A stretch of DNA of 63,536 nt from an uncultured Rhizobium sp. (GTDB lineage: Bacteria > Pseudomonadota > Alphaproteobacteria > Rickettsiales > UBA1997): contig CAYWVI010000003.1 in NCBI GenBank assembly GCA_964461905.1, positions 1 through 63,536 of the forward strand, given 5' to 3'. The notes beneath the pieces were generated by a model. The model did not search any database and was not told the DNA's origin. It saw only the letters and a program-made list of their open reading frames with translations. The position numbers were made by a program, and so were the translations under genes. Position 1 is the stretch's first letter. Each line of letters opens with the position of its first letter. Positions 29,026 to 51,972 of the stretch are shown in pieces.

Positions 29026-29901
29026 TTACAAGCCAGAGACGCTAATTTTATATTTTTTTGATAGATAATTCATAACATCTTTACGCTCCTGCATTTTCAA
29101 AGGGCGATTATAAACAATGACTTCTGAAATTAGACCATTAAATCCGCTAGAACCGCTTTTATTAGTTCCAATAGTTAGACCGGTAAGTTGATTAGATCCA
29201 GAATTTCCGGATCCAACAGCGGTAGTTGCATTGTTAACAAAAACTTGTGAAGAGGTTGTGTTAAAGTAAGCTGCAATAACGTAGTCATTTCCGGCAGTGA
29301 AAGTAGTTGAGGAGCTGTTAGAAGTTCCAGCATTAAGAATGATTGCAGTATCTTGAATGCTAATTGATGCAGTTGGGCTTCCAGAAGATCCAGAATCTAA
29401 AATTGTTTGAATTGTTGAGCTTGAAGTATTAGGTCGTATAACAAGAAAAATAGTGTTTTGAAGTGATGTTCCTTGGTAAAAATTTGTTGATAACCCGCTA
29501 TTAGAGATTGTGAACTTTGCATTTGATGCGCCGCTAAATTTAACGCTTGGAGTAGAATTAATACCACTTGCAACAAAAGTTATGTCTGAACTTGAACTAA
29601 CTAGCTGATTTTTTTTAGTTGCTCCAAAAATATTAGAATTAGATCCGGGAGTTAAATCATACCAAGCTGTTAAAGATTTGCCTTCAGAAGCTTCACTGCC
29701 GTTGAAAGATTCTTTCATTGCTGCTTCATACCAAGCAACTATTCCAGAAATTTCAATGGTTGGTGATTTTGAAGTAAAAAGCCTAGTATTGGAAATTTTA
29801 GCTGCACGAATCATGCCTACTCCTGCAATCACTCCAGCAATTAAAATTCCTGTAATGACTGCAACCATTGATAATTCTAATAAGGAGTAGGCTTTTTTCA
29901 T
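29026..29901 (-). CDS. Prepilin-type N-terminal cleavage/methylation protein with LamG-like jellyroll domain
   Basis: KKA/YSLLELSMVAVITGILIAGV class III signal; C-terminal G.ISEVIVYNRPL...ERKDV.NYLSKKY. Confidence 0.8.
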   Translation of the reverse strand: MKKAYSLLELSMVAVITGILIAGVIAGVGMIRAAKISNTRLFTSKSPTIEISGIVAWYEAAMKESFNGSEASEGKSLTAWYDLTPGSNSNIFGATKKNQLVSSSSDITFVASGINSTPSVKFSGASNAKFTISNSGLSTNFYQGTSLQNTIFLVIRPNTSSSTIQTILDSGSSGSPTASISIQDTAIILNAGTSNSSSTTFTAGNDYVIAAYFNTTSSQVFVNNATTAVGSGNSGSNQLTGLTIGTNKSGSSGFNGLISEVIVYNRPLKMQERKDVMNYLSKKYKISVSGL

Positions 29902-29913
29902 GTGCATAATTTT

Positions 29914-46584: not shown

Positions 46585-47088
46585 ATGAAATGTGCTATTA
46601 GACACTTATTGTTGATTTCTTTTTTATTGATTTCCTTTGGAGTTTCAGCTCAAGAGTTGCAAGGAAAATTCCAAGACTGGAATGTTTTTAAAATTGATCG
46701 AGGCGATAAAACAGTATGTTATCTTGCATCAACTCCAATAAAGCGTGATGGCAATTATGATAAAAGAGGCGAATCATTTTTTTTAGTAACAAATATTGAA
46801 AATGATGCTGATGAGGTTAGTACTTCGGCTGGCTTTGTTTATAACAAAAATTCAAATGTAGAGGTTTCGTTTGGTTCAAAAAAATTCTATCTTTTTCCAT
46901 ATCGCGCGATGGCTTGGGCAAATGATAAAAATGATGATTTAGATGTTATAAAAGAAATGCAAAAGCATGATGATATGATAGTTAGCGGTGTGGCACATGA
47001 TGGTAAAGTTTCTGCTGATACTTATTCTTTAATTGGATTTGTTCAGGCTTATAAAAAAATGAGACAAGTTTGTGAGGACGCTCAATGA
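46585..47088 (+). CDS. Invasion-associated locus B (IalB) family protein
   Basis: Signal peptide; G.F.DW.V, C...S.P, D.YSLIGF..AY...C. Confidence 0.8.
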   Translation: MKCAIRHLLLISFLLISFGVSAQELQGKFQDWNVFKIDRGDKTVCYLASTPIKRDGNYDKRGESFFLVTNIENDADEVSTSAGFVYNKNSNVEVSFGSKKFYLFPYRAMAWANDKNDDLDVIKEMQKHDDMIVSGVAHDGKVSADTYSLIGFVQAYKKMRQVCEDAQ

Positions 47089-47630: not shown

Positions 47631-48782
47631 ATGCAACAAACTGTAAAAGACATTTTAGAAAAAAACTCAGATAGAGTTTTACTACGAATTTCAGAAAACG
47701 AACTGGTATCGATAAAAAATGCAATTGAGTCATTTGCCAACGAAATTGCAATGACTCAAACTATTGAGCAAAAAAGAGTGCTGATAAATATAAAGTTTGG
47801 AAATGCGAAAAATAATATTACGCACCTTGCTGCCAAGTTTGGAGATGAAAATAGTATCAAGAAAATTTTAGAACATTTAAATGAAGATCAGGATATTAAC
47901 ATTGTTAATGAAGATCATTTTACCCCGCTTCATTTTGCTGTGATTAATGGTGATTTTGCTATTGTAAAATTATTGCTAGCTGCGGGTTATAATAAAAATG
48001 CCGCTGCTTCTGCAAAGAAACGCAATTGGACTCCAATTCACCTTGCAGCGCAGTATAATCATGCTGATTTAGTAAAGCTTTTAATTGATGCTGGAGTTAG
48101 TAAAGAAACAAAAACTAGTTTTGGTTTAACACCTTTGGTTATTGCTGCTGAATTTGGTGCTAATGAAACTTTAGAATTTTTGCTTTCAATTGGTGCTGAT
48201 AAAAACGTTCAAACTGTGGTTGAAAATCATAAAATGACAGCTTTGCATTATGCGGCGATTGGCAATTTTTGCAAAACAGCATCAATCTTGCTTGAGGCTG
48301 GAATAGAAAAAGACAAGGAAACTAATTTTGGATTTACGGCGTTAGATTTTGCGGCAAAAAATAATTTAGCAGAAATGGCATCTTTATTAATGTGCTATGG
48401 AATAAAAAATTGGAAGAGTTCCCTAGAAGTTGCTTTAGAAAATAAAAGTCATGATGTGGTGGCTTGTATTAAAAAATATCAAAAAGCAAAGTTAAAACTT
48501 TTTAATGTTGGGGGTTTGAAGAATCTTTCAGGGTCTTTGATAAACTCTATTAAAGAGTTTAGTTATGATAACTTAGGGGTGGGTAAAATAGTTGTTGATG
48601 GTGCCGTTTTTAATGCTTTTGGGATTTTATCTATAGATCAAACTATTGGCTGGATCAATAAAGATAAAAAAACATTTAGAGGTTTTGTTATTGATAACGA
48701 TTTTAAAGATTTAGAAAATGAGTTAAAAAGGTTAGATATTCTAGTTACAACAAAGCAGAAAAGTTTTTTGCAAAATAACTAA
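47631..48782 (+). CDS. Ankyrin-repeat protein (about 6-7 repeats)
   Basis: TPLHFAVING, TPIHLAAQY, TPLVIAAEFG, TALHYAAIG, TALDFAAKN. Confidence 0.92.
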   Translation: MQQTVKDILEKNSDRVLLRISENELVSIKNAIESFANEIAMTQTIEQKRVLINIKFGNAKNNITHLAAKFGDENSIKKILEHLNEDQDINIVNEDHFTPLHFAVINGDFAIVKLLLAAGYNKNAAASAKKRNWTPIHLAAQYNHADLVKLLIDAGVSKETKTSFGLTPLVIAAEFGANETLEFLLSIGADKNVQTVVENHKMTALHYAAIGNFCKTASILLEAGIEKDKETNFGFTALDFAAKNNLAEMASLLMCYGIKNWKSSLEVALENKSHDVVACIKKYQKAKLKLFNVGGLKNLSGSLINSIKEFSYDNLGVGKIVVDGAVFNAFGILSIDQTIGWINKDKKTFRGFVIDNDFKDLENELKRLDILVTTKQKSFLQNN

Positions 48783-48807: not shown

Positions 48808-51800
48808 ATGAAAAAAAAATCTTATCACATACAATTGCGCGCTTTTTCATTAATTGAGGTTGCAGTTGTTATAATAATTATTGGTGTATTGGTTGCGGGA
48901 ATTTTTGTTTCTGATAATTTGATTACAAAATCTCGTTTGCAGATGGCGGTTAACTTATCAAAGTCATCGCCAATTAATAGCATTAGAGATAATGTTTTGT
49001 GGCTTGAAACTAGTTTGGATAGTAGTTTGAAAGATACTGAATCTTTTAATGATGCGTCAATTACTGCATGGAACAGTCAAAATAACTCAGGTAATAAAAT
49101 TACGGTGAATGCTGTTGGTTTGGGTCCAGTTTATGCTAATACAATTAATAGAATTCCGGCTGTAAAGTTTGATGCTAGTAGTGTTGCAAGACCAAGTGTT
49201 GATAATTATCTTGAGATAGAGGATGCCTCATTTCTTAACAAAACAGATTATACAATTTTTGTTTTGGAAAAAAGACAGAGTAATTCATCTAATAATTATT
49301 TTATTGGTGAGAATCTTAATGGAACTGCCAATCAAAGTTTTGCTTTGGGATATAAAAATGATTCAAAGATTGTTCACTCACAAGGTTTGGGAATGTCTTA
49401 TGATTCAACAGTTAGTTTTTATGCTGATTCAAAAGAAAAAGCGCGACTTTTTACATTTATTCATAGTTCAACTGGTGGAAACAAAACTTATATTAACGGT
49501 CTTCTTGCGTCAGAAGATTCAACTAAAACAGGGCATTTAACTAATATTTCTAAGCTTTCTATTGGTAAGGGATATAGCGGTGAAATTGGAGAAATTGCTT
49601 TTTTCACAAGAGCTTTAAACGATAAAGAAAGACAGGATATAGAAGATTATTTGTCTCGAAAATGGGATAGAAAAAATCTAAGATCTTCTGCTCAAGATGG
49701 TTCTTGTTCTTCTGGTATAATTACTGATGGTGGTTGTGATCTTGGTTATAGTTGTGATGCTGGATATATAGGTGCTGATTGTACAGCTTGTGATGAGTCT
49801 AATGGATATTATCTTATAGAAGGAACTTGTCAGCAAGGTTGTATGGTTAATATTACTGGTGCTTCAACAACTTCTGTTCCCGAAGTTACAGATAGTTTTG
49901 ATTGTGATCAAAGTGGTTATGGTGGATCAATAGAATACACATGTAGTGATGGAGTTTTTTCAACCAACAACGTTTGTGCAATAGTTACTGGTTCTGCAAA
50001 TTGCACTGGAGGAATAATTGATAATACAAGTGTTTCAGGATCAACGATACATAAATTTAACTCTTCAGGAACATTCACTTGTTCAGCATCTAAAACAGCA
50101 CAAGTTCTTGTTGTTGCTGGAGGAGGAGGGGGAGGAGGAGTAATTGGTGGAGGTGGTGGTGCAGGTGGGGTTGTTTACAACTCAAGCTATGCTTTAGCAG
50201 CAAGTTCTTACAATATAACTGTTGGTGCCGGTGGTTTGGGTGGTTATGGTCATGATTCTAATGCTCAAGGTGGAACTAAAGGTGGAGATTCTGTTTTTGA
50301 TGTTAATAGCACAACTTTAAAAATAACTGCTCTTGGAGGCGGTGCGGGAGGTCACTGGGGAGGTTCAACAACTTCAACATCTACAAGCGGAGGATCTGGT
50401 GGTGGTGGTAGTAATTCAGCAGCTGCAGGTAGCGGCACTTCTGGTCAAGGAAATAGTGGTGGGGTGAGTTTAAACACTAATTATGCTGGTGGCGGTGGTG
50501 GTGCTGGATCTGCTGGTCAAACTTTTACCAACGGAGTAAAATCAGGAGATGGAGGAGCTGGAGTGAATTACGCTTCTATTTTTGGAACTTCGGTTGGAGA
50601 ATCTGGTTGGTTTGCTAGCGGTGGAGGAGGAGGAGTAAGAAGCGGTAATGGGGCTAATGGTGTTGCTTCAAATGGTGGCGGTGGTGCTGGTACAACCTAT
50701 ACAGTTGTTGCGGAATCTGGAATGCCAAATACAGGCGGCGGTGGTGGTGGTGCAGGTTATAATACTGGAAATTCATCTATAAGATTTGGTGGTAGTGGAG
50801 GATCGGGGGTTGTACTGATTAGCTATATTTCTAGTACAACAACTTGTCCGTCAGGTTATAGTTTGTCTGATTCAAACTGTATAAAATCTTGTGATGTTTC
50901 TGTCGCCGGTGTTTCAACTTCTTCGGTATTTTCTGGAAGTGGTTCTCTTAGTTGTGATGTTTCAGGATATTCTGGATCAGTATCTTATAACTGTAGTTTA
51001 ACAAATGGTCTATCAACAACTGGACAATGTTATCGTACTTGTACTGTTAGTGGTGTTACTGGTGCTAATGGAAAAGTTGTTAGTCATGGATCAACTTCAA
51101 CTTCTTGCAATGCGGGATATATGGGAACTATTAATTATACCTGTAATGATGGAGATTTCCAACCAACTGGCGGATCATGTTCAGTTTCTCCAAGTTGTAC
51201 AGGTGGAACCGTAACCAATCCTTCTGCTGGCGTTACAGTTCATACATTTACATCAAATGGAACTTTTAACTGTACTTATGAAAAGGTCGCGCAAATTTTA
51301 GTAATTGGTGGTGGCGGTGGTGGTGGTGGAAATGGTGGTGGTGGTGGTGGCGGCGGCGGCGTTGTTTATAAATCTTCCATTAATATAGGTTCTGGAAGTT
51401 ATAACGTTGTTGTTGGTGCTGGTGGATCTGGTGTTCTTAATACTACTACTTCAGGTGCAAATGGAAAAAACTCAAGCATAAATATTAGTGGAGTTGAAGC
51501 TGCAGTTGGTGGCGGTGGTGGAGTTAGTAGAGATTCTGGGGGTGCTGCTTCTACTGGTGGTTCTGGTGGTGGTGGTGGTGGTGGAAATATCCCACAACGT
51601 ACTTTTGGTGTTGGAACTTCTGGTCAAGGTTATGATGGAGGAAGTGGAGTTGAATCTGGATGTAATGCTGCAGGTGGCGGCGGAGGCGGAGGTGGTTCAG
51701 CTGGAAGTAATGCCGCTGTTAGTGTTGGAGGCAATGGTGGAAATGGTTATGAAAATTTAATAAGCGGTGCATCAGTTATTTATAGCTCTGGCGGCGGCGG

Positions 51801-51972
51801 TGGTCGTACTTGTAATAGTGGCGGATCTGTTGGAAGTGGAGGTTATGGTGCTGGAAATGGTTCGTTTGGGGCGGGAATTGCTGCAACTGGTTATGGTTCT
51901 GGCGGCGGTGGCGGTGGTGCTAATTCTGCTGGAGGAGCTGGAAAATCTGGTGTTGTGATTATCAGATATTAA
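48808..51972 (+). CDS. Giant prepilin-type protein: pilin N-terminus, LamG-like domain, Cys-rich modules and two glycine-rich domains
   Basis: RA/FSLIEVAVVIIIIGVLVAGI; GEIGEIAFFTRAL..ER..IEDYL.RKW; two HxF.S.GTF...VVAGGGGGG...SGVV.I.Y domains. Confidence 0.85.
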   Translation: MKKKSYHIQLRAFSLIEVAVVIIIIGVLVAGIFVSDNLITKSRLQMAVNLSKSSPINSIRDNVLWLETSLDSSLKDTESFNDASITAWNSQNNSGNKITVNAVGLGPVYANTINRIPAVKFDASSVARPSVDNYLEIEDASFLNKTDYTIFVLEKRQSNSSNNYFIGENLNGTANQSFALGYKNDSKIVHSQGLGMSYDSTVSFYADSKEKARLFTFIHSSTGGNKTYINGLLASEDSTKTGHLTNISKLSIGKGYSGEIGEIAFFTRALNDKERQDIEDYLSRKWDRKNLRSSAQDGSCSSGIITDGGCDLGYSCDAGYIGADCTACDESNGYYLIEGTCQQGCMVNITGASTTSVPEVTDSFDCDQSGYGGSIEYTCSDGVFSTNNVCAIVTGSANCTGGIIDNTSVSGSTIHKFNSSGTFTCSASKTAQVLVVAGGGGGGGVIGGGGGAGGVVYNSSYALAASSYNITVGAGGLGGYGHDSNAQGGTKGGDSVFDVNSTTLKITALGGGAGGHWGGSTTSTSTSGGSGGGGSNSAAAGSGTSGQGNSGGVSLNTNYAGGGGGAGSAGQTFTNGVKSGDGGAGVNYASIFGTSVGESGWFASGGGGGVRSGNGANGVASNGGGGAGTTYTVVAESGMPNTGGGGGGAGYNTGNSSIRFGGSGGSGVVLISYISSTTTCPSGYSLSDSNCIKSCDVSVAGVSTSSVFSGSGSLSCDVSGYSGSVSYNCSLTNGLSTTGQCYRTCTVSGVTGANGKVVSHGSTSTSCNAGYMGTINYTCNDGDFQPTGGSCSVSPSCTGGTVTNPSAGVTVHTFTSNGTFNCTYEKVAQILVIGGGGGGGGNGGGGGGGGGVVYKSSINIGSGSYNVVVGAGGSGVLNTTTSGANGKNSSINISGVEAAVGGGGGVSRDSGGAASTGGSGGGGGGGNIPQRTFGVGTSGQGYDGGSGVESGCNAAGGGGGGGGSAGSNAAVSVGGNGGNGYENLISGASVIYSSGGGGGRTCNSGGSVGSGGYGAGNGSFGAGIAATGYGSGGGGGGANSAGGAGKSGVVIIRY

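Follow-up and report, generated by a model that had tools for sequence, protein, structure and literature searches.

Why should a prepilin signal stand at the start of a protein of more than a thousand residues, and what would such a protein do for the cell that makes it? The question is raised by a gene at positions 48808-51972 of a 63,536-nucleotide stretch of DNA (the window) from contig CAYWVI010000003.1 of assembly GCA_964461905.1, which is labelled as an uncultured Rhizobium sp. and placed by the Genome Taxonomy Database in the Rickettsiales (UBA1997). An earlier examination of the letters alone (the sequence-only reading) had taken the gene for a giant type IV pilin-like adhesin that is processed by a prepilin peptidase and assembled from swappable modules. 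Our analysis suggests that the product, P0001, is probably a modular type IV pilin-like adhesin that is displayed on a pilus. The assignment of its domains is secure; its function in adhesion is one that we infer from sequence comparison and structure prediction.

The gene occupies one uninterrupted forward-strand frame of 1054 codons and encodes a product of 1054 aa. A collinear ortholog of 1055 aa, P0002, lies on a separate metagenome contig of 215 kb, and thus the architecture of P0001 is not an assembly chimera. The parts of the gene, with the evidence for each (AF2, AlphaFold2 model; pLDDT, predicted local distance difference test; HMM, hidden Markov model), are as follows.

48808..51972, + strand: whole gene of the modular prepilin-type protein P0001 (single open frame; collinear 1055-aa ortholog P0002)
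48808..48843, + strand: leader peptide, aa 1-12 (MKKKSYHIQLRA), basic, with Ala at -1 (direct reading)
48844..48963, + strand: pilin-type alpha-1 helix, aa 13-52 (TIGR02532; AF2 helix)
48985..49677, + strand: ConA-like/LamG jelly-roll module, aa ~60-290 (AF2 beta-sandwich; Foldseek; paralogs match PF13385)
49705..49830, + strand: EGF-like six-Cys stretch, aa 300-341 (Cys positions; small beta-hairpins, AF2 pLDDT 67-75)
49840..49977, + strand: four-Cys module 1, aa 345-390 (local HMM, i-E = 2.4e-27; aligns with modules 2 and 3)
49996..50832, + strand: Gly-rich head 1 (Gly_rich_2, PF21722), aa 397-675 (Pfam best stretch aa 420-673; local HMM)
50890..51030, + strand: four-Cys module 2, aa 695-741 (alignment; the AF2 model of aa 690-1054 has short beta-strands here, with high pLDDT)
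51040..51180, + strand: four-Cys module 3, aa 745-791 (alignment; AF2 model of aa 690-1054)
51190..51969, + strand: Gly-rich head 2 (Gly_rich_2), aa 795-1054 (AF2; Foldseek)

The N-terminus of P0001 consists of MKKKSYHIQLRA and, after the predicted cut, FSLIEVAVVIIIIGVLVAGIF. The class III signal and hydrophobic helix that had been read from the letters are present: TIGR02532 passes with 17.0 bits against a cut-off of 16.3, and the AF2 model contains one long helix at aa 15-52 (pLDDT 80-97), though the residue at -1 is Ala. The alpha-1 region has Phe at +1 (F13), Glu at +5 (E17), Gly at +14 and a hydrophobic tract of 21 residues, and E17 is invariant across the family alignment. When the whole genome of P0001 was searched, the prepilin motif scored 22.6 bits. 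Among 160 N-termini of the family the leader has a median length of 11 aa, +1 is Phe in 155, and -1 is Ala in 146 and Gly in 12; Glu at +5 was built into the pattern that retrieved these sequences, so its conservation among them is not independent. Every prepilin-type gene in the genome of P0001, the non-LamG pilins included, has Ala at -1.

The helix is followed by a lectin-type fold. For aa 1-400, the AF2 model (built from a 45-sequence family alignment; pLDDT 91.1, predicted template modelling score, pTM, 0.76) has a beta-sandwich at aa 62-266, a closing helix at aa 272-285 and then small beta modules. Foldseek matched this model to 218 Protein Data Bank (PDB) structures at E<=1e-3, and all those listed were jelly-roll lectin-type domains of the ConA-like kind, among them the lectin-like half of clostridial neurotoxin receptor-binding domains, a trans-sialidase lectin domain, CBM40 and a cyanophage tailspike. 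The modular minor pilin PilC of Streptococcus sanguinis (7oa7/7oa8) was matched at E = 6e-8. The Pfam LamG model (PF13385) found nothing in P0001 itself at E<=1. The same model scores 32.1 bits (threshold 27.6) on a paralog at 29026-29907 of the reverse strand, falls just short of threshold on two further paralogs, and is carried by several database homologs of P0001. The fold, the paralog and the homologs together bear out the LamG-like domain of the sequence-only reading. As no separate pilin beta-sheet head is predicted, the lectin fold appears to take the place that the usual small pilin head would have.

Among the cluster representatives from an exhaustive profile search are giant proteins of 2000-6100 aa (P0121-P0126 and others) in which the LamG subtype of P0001 is repeated in tandem up to 14 times. 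Their best match to the profile is confined to the LamG part and excludes the pilin helix.

Beyond the lectin module the chain is rich in Cys. The 26 Cys of P0001 fall into a conserved hairpin (C300-C310), an EGF-like run to C341 and three four-Cys modules of 46 aa, and this regular arrangement fits oxidative folding outside the cytoplasm, which supports export. The EGF-like stretch proposed earlier is borne out in part. Its six Cys at aa 300-341 have the C..GY.G..C..C spacing of an EGF-like pattern, but the stretch matched no HMM, and a sequence search with it and the first four-Cys module gave nothing significant in the PDB or Pfam. The three Cys modules, in contrast, were placed correctly at aa 345-390, 695-741 and 745-791. 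They can be aligned with each other (consensus C.VS.TG.S....V..GSGS..C...GY.G.V.YTC..G...T.GSC) and recur in paralogs and relatives, one to five times in each. A profile of the four-Cys module retrieved nothing significant from Pfam or the PDB, the best match being to complement control protein (CCP, or Sushi) domains at E about 4. The module has four Cys and a GY.G...Y.C motif in 46 aa and lacks Trp, whereas CCP domains are about 60 aa long, with four Cys paired 1-3/2-4 and a conserved Trp. We therefore treat the Cys-rich parts as an unclassified, probably disulfide-bonded spacer, for which sushi-like and EGF-like are pattern-level labels only.

The two glycine-rich domains were also read correctly from the letters. 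PF21722 recognizes P0001 in two stretches with 123.2 bits against a threshold of 24.3 (E = 2e-35), the two heads are 41% identical over 279 aa, and they start and end as had been described. The AF2 model of aa 690-1054, built from an alignment of 114 rows, is of high confidence (pLDDT 95.2, pTM 0.85), and in head 2 the strands of a beta-sandwich flank a long stretch to which DSSP assigns no regular structure. The nearest structures that Foldseek gave for head 2 were the tail-tip protein of mycobacteriophage Bxb1 (9d93; E = 2e-5, 28% identity), the fibre protein gp24 of cyanophage Pam3 (7ypx; E = 3e-4) and, weakly, the glycine-rich ligand-binding domains of LTK and ALK (E = 0.013-0.3). Predicted viral structures gave 231 further matches at E<=1e-3 (30-44% identity); they belong to uncultured tailed phages, cyanophages, a Pelagibacter phage and prasinoviruses of green algae. 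The sequence-only reading had called this a domain of phage virion and tail proteins, and the tail-fibre and tail-tip matches agree with it. Judged by profile and model comparison, the heads and the receptor-binding domains that phage tail fibres carry at their distal ends are homologous. In domains of the Pam3 gp24 type, a lattice stem is built from conserved GGGGxGG motifs, with distal loops that are hypervariable (PMC9608196). In the alignment of the P0001 family, Gly runs conserved at 80-99% alternate with segments conserved at 10-40%.

P0001 is one of many such proteins in its genome (1.38 Mb in 65 contigs, 95% complete). The suggestion of an expanded repertoire, made from the paralog at 29 kb, proved well founded: there are 17 complete prepilin-type genes and a fragment at a contig end, and 12 of the 17 share the helix and LamG module. 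Five of these 12 encode short LamG-only proteins (287-308 aa) and the other seven, P0001 included, are long (572-1172 aa); the 12 are dispersed over many contigs. Two other prepilin-type genes (C9, C41) combine the prepilin signal with a Gly_rich_2 head, and the remaining non-LamG genes include a 278-aa pilin (C20) and a pilin-like protein of ~235 aa (C16). Gly_rich_2 heads occur in nine genes, as eight full-length domain matches and a partial one in C13. No pilin under about 235 aa was found in the genome. The members that matter most for what follows are listed here.

29026..29907 of the window, - strand: short paralog of 293 aa with prepilin signal and LamG only (tblastn E = 6.6e-15; phmmer E = 8e-11; PF13385)
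G000:C20:16139-16975, - strand: non-LamG pilin of 278 aa, Ser/Thr/Ala-rich in the middle, with a Cys pair of the disulfide type at the C-terminus
G000:C16:17430-18165, + strand: ~235-aa pilin-like protein with AFTIIK (Lys replaces Glu+5) and a C-terminal Cys pair
G000:C20:18937-19698, - strand: second PilD-like gene, 253 aa (A24_N_bact, 80.8 bits)

The 278-aa pilin could be the major subunit. It has full-length orthologs (40-63% identity) in at least 11 of 20 other sampled genomes of the same taxonomic family, and over its first ~45 residues it shares 40-65% identity with N-termini of the adhesin family in other genomes. It shares a NAF..Y.ALPGD motif with the C16 protein, which lacks E5 and may be a minor pilin that caps the tip. 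In two genomes of the same family (G202 and G214, 1.1-1.2 Mb) the 278-aa pilin has 19-31 matches, mostly to its N-terminal ~80 residues and in open reading frames of roughly 130-310 aa, which may represent a different pilin expansion within the same bacterial family.

The prepilin peptidase that the sequence-only reading presupposed, and the core of a type IV pilus machine with it, were found in the genome. It encodes a complete PilD (C9:34053-34850; A24_N_bact and Peptidase_A24), a PilB-type ATPase (C15:17143-18846) with an MshE-type N-terminus that binds cyclic di-GMP, the PilC/GspF platform protein and a secretin (C34:5586-7121) that scores best on the MshL model. Its PilT, the ATPase by which type IVa pili are typically retracted, scores 446 bits (cut-off 319 bits). 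From the MshE-type N-terminus and the MshL match, the filament machine may be MSHA-like and under the control of cyclic di-GMP. The second PilD-like gene, 2 kb from that of the candidate major pilin, has the N-terminal domain only, as Peptidase_A24 gives no match to it at E<=0.01. The genes of the machinery lie scattered among housekeeping genes. PilY1 was not found; the control genomes were likewise unmatched, which makes that search uninformative.

The family is widespread in related bacteria. A word-indexed search returned more than 1,900 homologs of P0001, most of them 600-1300 aa long with the same architecture and, where named, from metagenome-assembled genomes (MAGs) of Rickettsiales or Pseudomonadota, and an exhaustive profile search gave 3,022 cluster representatives at E<=1e-30. 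In a scan of species-representative genomes a single-protein query found nothing, whereas the family alignment worked as a query; it picked out MAGs from freshwater lakes and groundwater that are labelled Rickettsiales or Alphaproteobacteria, and one of these MAGs has about 20 separate matching loci. In the order as sampled, 27 of 201 genomes carry the combination of helix and LamG: all 11 from the same taxonomic family as P0001, with 2-13 or more copies each, 7 of 11 from a second taxonomic family, and a few others. All 27 also encode the T2SSF platform protein, which is found in 145 of the 201 genomes (72%), and taxonomic families without T2SSF are without the family too. A family that depends on the pilus machinery would show such a co-occurrence.

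Comparison of P0001 with P0002 shows how the modules have moved. The N-module is 84% identical between the two proteins, the Cys region 66% and the two-module linker 67%. Head 1 of P0001, however, is 77% identical to head 2 of P0002 and only 45% to its head 1, and head 2 of P0001 has no close counterpart in P0002 (44-45%). Furthermore, the proteins that contain the closest relatives of each P0001 head are not those with the closest N-modules. Heads have therefore been exchanged or substituted while the scaffold was conserved, much as had been foreseen when the modules were called swappable.

How these parts may work together can be outlined as follows. The chain consists, in this order, of a class III signal and alpha-1 helix, a ConA/LamG lectin module, a stalk of small, probably disulfide-bonded beta modules and two TNF-like, glycine-rich heads. 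P0001 would be inserted in the inner membrane by its helix and cut by the prepilin peptidase of the lineage between Ala12 and Phe13, and the PilB/PilC machine would then load it into a type IV filament that leaves the cell through the secretin. As P0001 is bulky, it would probably sit at or near the tip of the filament. In this position the lectin module, together with variable loops in the Gly-rich heads, may bind a surface structure on a host, a prey or a neighbouring cell, and retraction by PilT would draw the partners towards each other. A repertoire of specificities may result from the dozen paralogs, whose heads differ and can be exchanged.

Several observations weigh against this proposal. 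PilN was not found in the genome, and matches to PilM_2 are weak and partial, in frames of 415 and 350 aa that may be other actin-like proteins. No pilus machinery lies beside members of the family (65 related loci), nor do members of the family lie beside the machinery genes of this genome. The signal from T2SSF is weak, because 72% of the order has that protein and relatives are not independent samples. The AF2 model contains no classical alpha-beta pilin head, and the helix (aa 15-52) runs straight into the jelly-roll (aa 62-266). The Pfam N_methyl model (PF07963) scores 16.1 bits on P0001, under its threshold of 21.2. The main point, however, is the cleavage site. Bacterial prepilin leaders are described as invariably ending in Gly at -1, which is critical for cleavage (PMC4471445). 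Ala12 of P0001 departs from this rule, and its cleavage is not assured.

The display of P0001 could also be of another kind. Class III signals on surface-binding proteins have a known alternative use in the sugar-binding bindosome of Sulfolobus (PMC4471445), and by analogy P0001 and its paralogs might form a short pseudopilus or a surface array of binding proteins, rather than a long retractile pilus with an adhesin at its tip. With LamG on 12 of the 17 complete prepilin-type genes and no product under about 235 aa, the LamG proteins could be the subunits themselves and not rare tip pieces, and the undetected PilM and PilN alignment components point the same way. However, the genome retains a PilT that scores above its cut-off (446 bits against 319), and it has a conserved non-LamG pilin that could build a filament. 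Furthermore, the bindosome is archaeal, and to our knowledge none has ever been shown in bacteria. We therefore consider an arrangement of this type unlikely.

The departure at -1 leads to a second alternative, in which Ala blocks processing and P0001 remains an uncleaved signal-anchor protein, attached to the inner membrane while its domains extend into the periplasm, or released in some other way. In favour of it are the low N_methyl score and the description of Gly-1 as absolutely critical for cleavage in bacteria (PMC4471445). Against it, every prepilin-type protein of the genome, the candidate major pilin included, has Ala at -1, and the full core machinery has been kept in a genome of 1.38 Mb, which argues that the peptidase of the lineage accepts Ala. 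Moreover, Phe at +1 is retained in 155 of the 160 N-termini, and a lectin fold and phage-type receptor-binding heads make little sense in the periplasm. Because Ala is found throughout the lineage together with retained machinery, a peptidase adapted to Ala seems more likely than a loss of processing, and we regard an uncleaved anchor as quite improbable.

That the gene belongs to a phage or prophage, as a tail-fibre gene or its remnant and not a cellular one, is very improbable indeed: the 231 viral structural matches of the Gly-rich domain (30-44% identity) and its solved tail-tip and tail-fibre relatives would fit such an origin, but the neighbours are housekeeping and host-interaction genes with no phage genes among them, the N-terminal pilin signal is common to 12 dispersed chromosomal paralogs, the base composition outside Gly codons is that of the genome background, and the combination of helix and LamG is conserved across a whole bacterial family.

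For P0001 as a pilus-displayed adhesin, the closest precedent lies in the modular pilins, a catalogued class in which an N-terminal prepilin motif is joined to at least one extra domain with no specific link to pilus biology; prepilin with PF13385 ranks within the 15 most frequent architectures of the class (Raynaud et al. 2021, PMC8179133). P0001 fits this definition: behind its prepilin motif come a LamG fold and two PF21722 domains. For S. sanguinis PilC, a minor pilin of the modular kind that bears a ConA-like lectin module, the structure has been solved, and the protein has been proved to bind glycans as a component of the pilus (PDB 7OA7/7OA8; PMC9934059). In both proteins a ConA-like lectin module and further modules are mounted on a pilin helix with a class III signal, and the role proposed for both is that of a tip-exposed adhesin. 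However, the sequence identity between them is only about 15%, and P0001 has its lectin fold directly on the helix, with no recognizable pilin beta-sheet or Ig-like module. It also differs from PilC in its stalk of Cys modules, in its two Gly_rich_2 heads and in the Ala at -1. Furthermore, its host is a diderm with a secretin and has 12 paralogs per genome rather than one.

The heads have a different set of relatives. They share a TNF-like sandwich and a glycine-rich lattice fold with the tail-fibre and tail-tip domains of Pam3 gp24 (7YPX; PMC9608196), Bxb1 (9D93) and gp38 of phage S16; the identity is 21-28% to solved structures, as against 30-44% to many predicted viral proteins. As in Pam3 gp24, runs of the GGGGxGG type alternate with variable loops in the P0001 family. 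Phage fibre tips, however, are trimeric, sit on a helical or fibre shaft and depend on a chaperone, whereas P0001 has two copies of the head in one chain, behind a pilin anchor and with Cys modules between them, and no trimerization element or chaperone gene is evident for it. The glycine-rich domain of ALK and LTK (7LS0, 7NX1) is likewise an extracellular ligand-binding domain and, in ALK, stands beside EGF-like modules, but these proteins are eukaryotic receptor kinases that bind a protein cytokine, and the match is weak and remote, so that homology is not established. With the PilY1/PilC tip adhesins and the large minor pilins of the GspK/CofB type, P0001 would share a bulky binding protein at the filament tip and variable, exchangeable modules (PMC8179133). 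GspK and CofB, unlike P0001, retain the pilin head; PilY1 is no pilin at all, its defining part being a beta-propeller.

Thus, the repertoire can be called undescribed only in part. Modular pilins, prepilin with PF13385 included, had already been catalogued (PMC8179133) and PilC characterized (PMC9934059). In the literature searched we found neither a family of the P0001 type (LamG on the helix, Cys stalk, Gly_rich_2 heads), nor its expansion in Rickettsiales-like MAGs, nor any mention of PF21722. Two comparative studies of the Rickettsiales record type IV pilus genes, and the word "pilin" is absent from their main texts (PMC10847448, PMC9352585). What is new in the P0001 family, compared with known modular pilins, is the lectin directly on the helix, the Cys stalk, the one or two Gly_rich_2 heads, the Ala at -1, and the expansion and head shuffling in a lineage with small genomes.

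These proteins offer concrete and testable candidates for attachment molecules in early-branching, extracellular Rickettsiales-like bacteria. They extend the idea of the modular pilin, in that a lectin fold stands where the pilin head would be and the payload is a receptor-binding domain of the viral type, and they challenge the rule that bacterial prepilin leaders end in Gly. They also show that one receptor-binding module is common to cellular adhesins and to viruses of bacteria and algae. A bolder account, which we put forward tentatively and regard as doubtful in its full form, is that this whole lineage of freshwater Rickettsiales-like bacteria with small genomes may have rebuilt its type IV filaments, with an Ala cleavage site in all pilins, a lectin-fold head on most of them and, on a dozen, exchangeable heads of the phage and algal-virus type, so that a retractile pilus would catch host or prey and its specificity would be changed by cassette swaps.

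The neighbours of the P0001 gene in the window are of housekeeping and host-interaction types (IalB, an ankyrin protein, icd, TetR-like), with no phage genes among them, and the two immediately upstream are as follows.

Window 46585-47088, + strand: IalB-family (invasion-associated locus B) gene, upstream neighbour of the adhesin gene
Window 47631-48782, + strand: ankyrin-repeat gene, 383 aa, which stops 25 nt before the adhesin start codon

Genes of both types are often tied to host interaction. A scan for promoters and terminators in the window gave counts no higher than in shuffled sequence.

Between 50 and 52 kb the guanine-plus-cytosine (GC) content rises to 0.45 and the G-skew to 0.38, compared with a GC background of ~0.33. 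The Gly codons of the P0001 gene are mostly GGT and GGA, and once Gly codons are left out the GC content of this region is 0.32-0.34 and the skew about zero or negative, as in the genome background. The rise thus reflects amino-acid composition, not foreign DNA, and recent horizontal transfer was rejected as its source. Two in-frame repeats in head 2, (TGG)15 at window 51306-51350 and (TGG)10 at 51555-51584, encode poly-Gly. As the runs are in-frame triplets, phase variation by frameshift was rejected; slippage within them would alter the length of the Gly runs and keep the frame.

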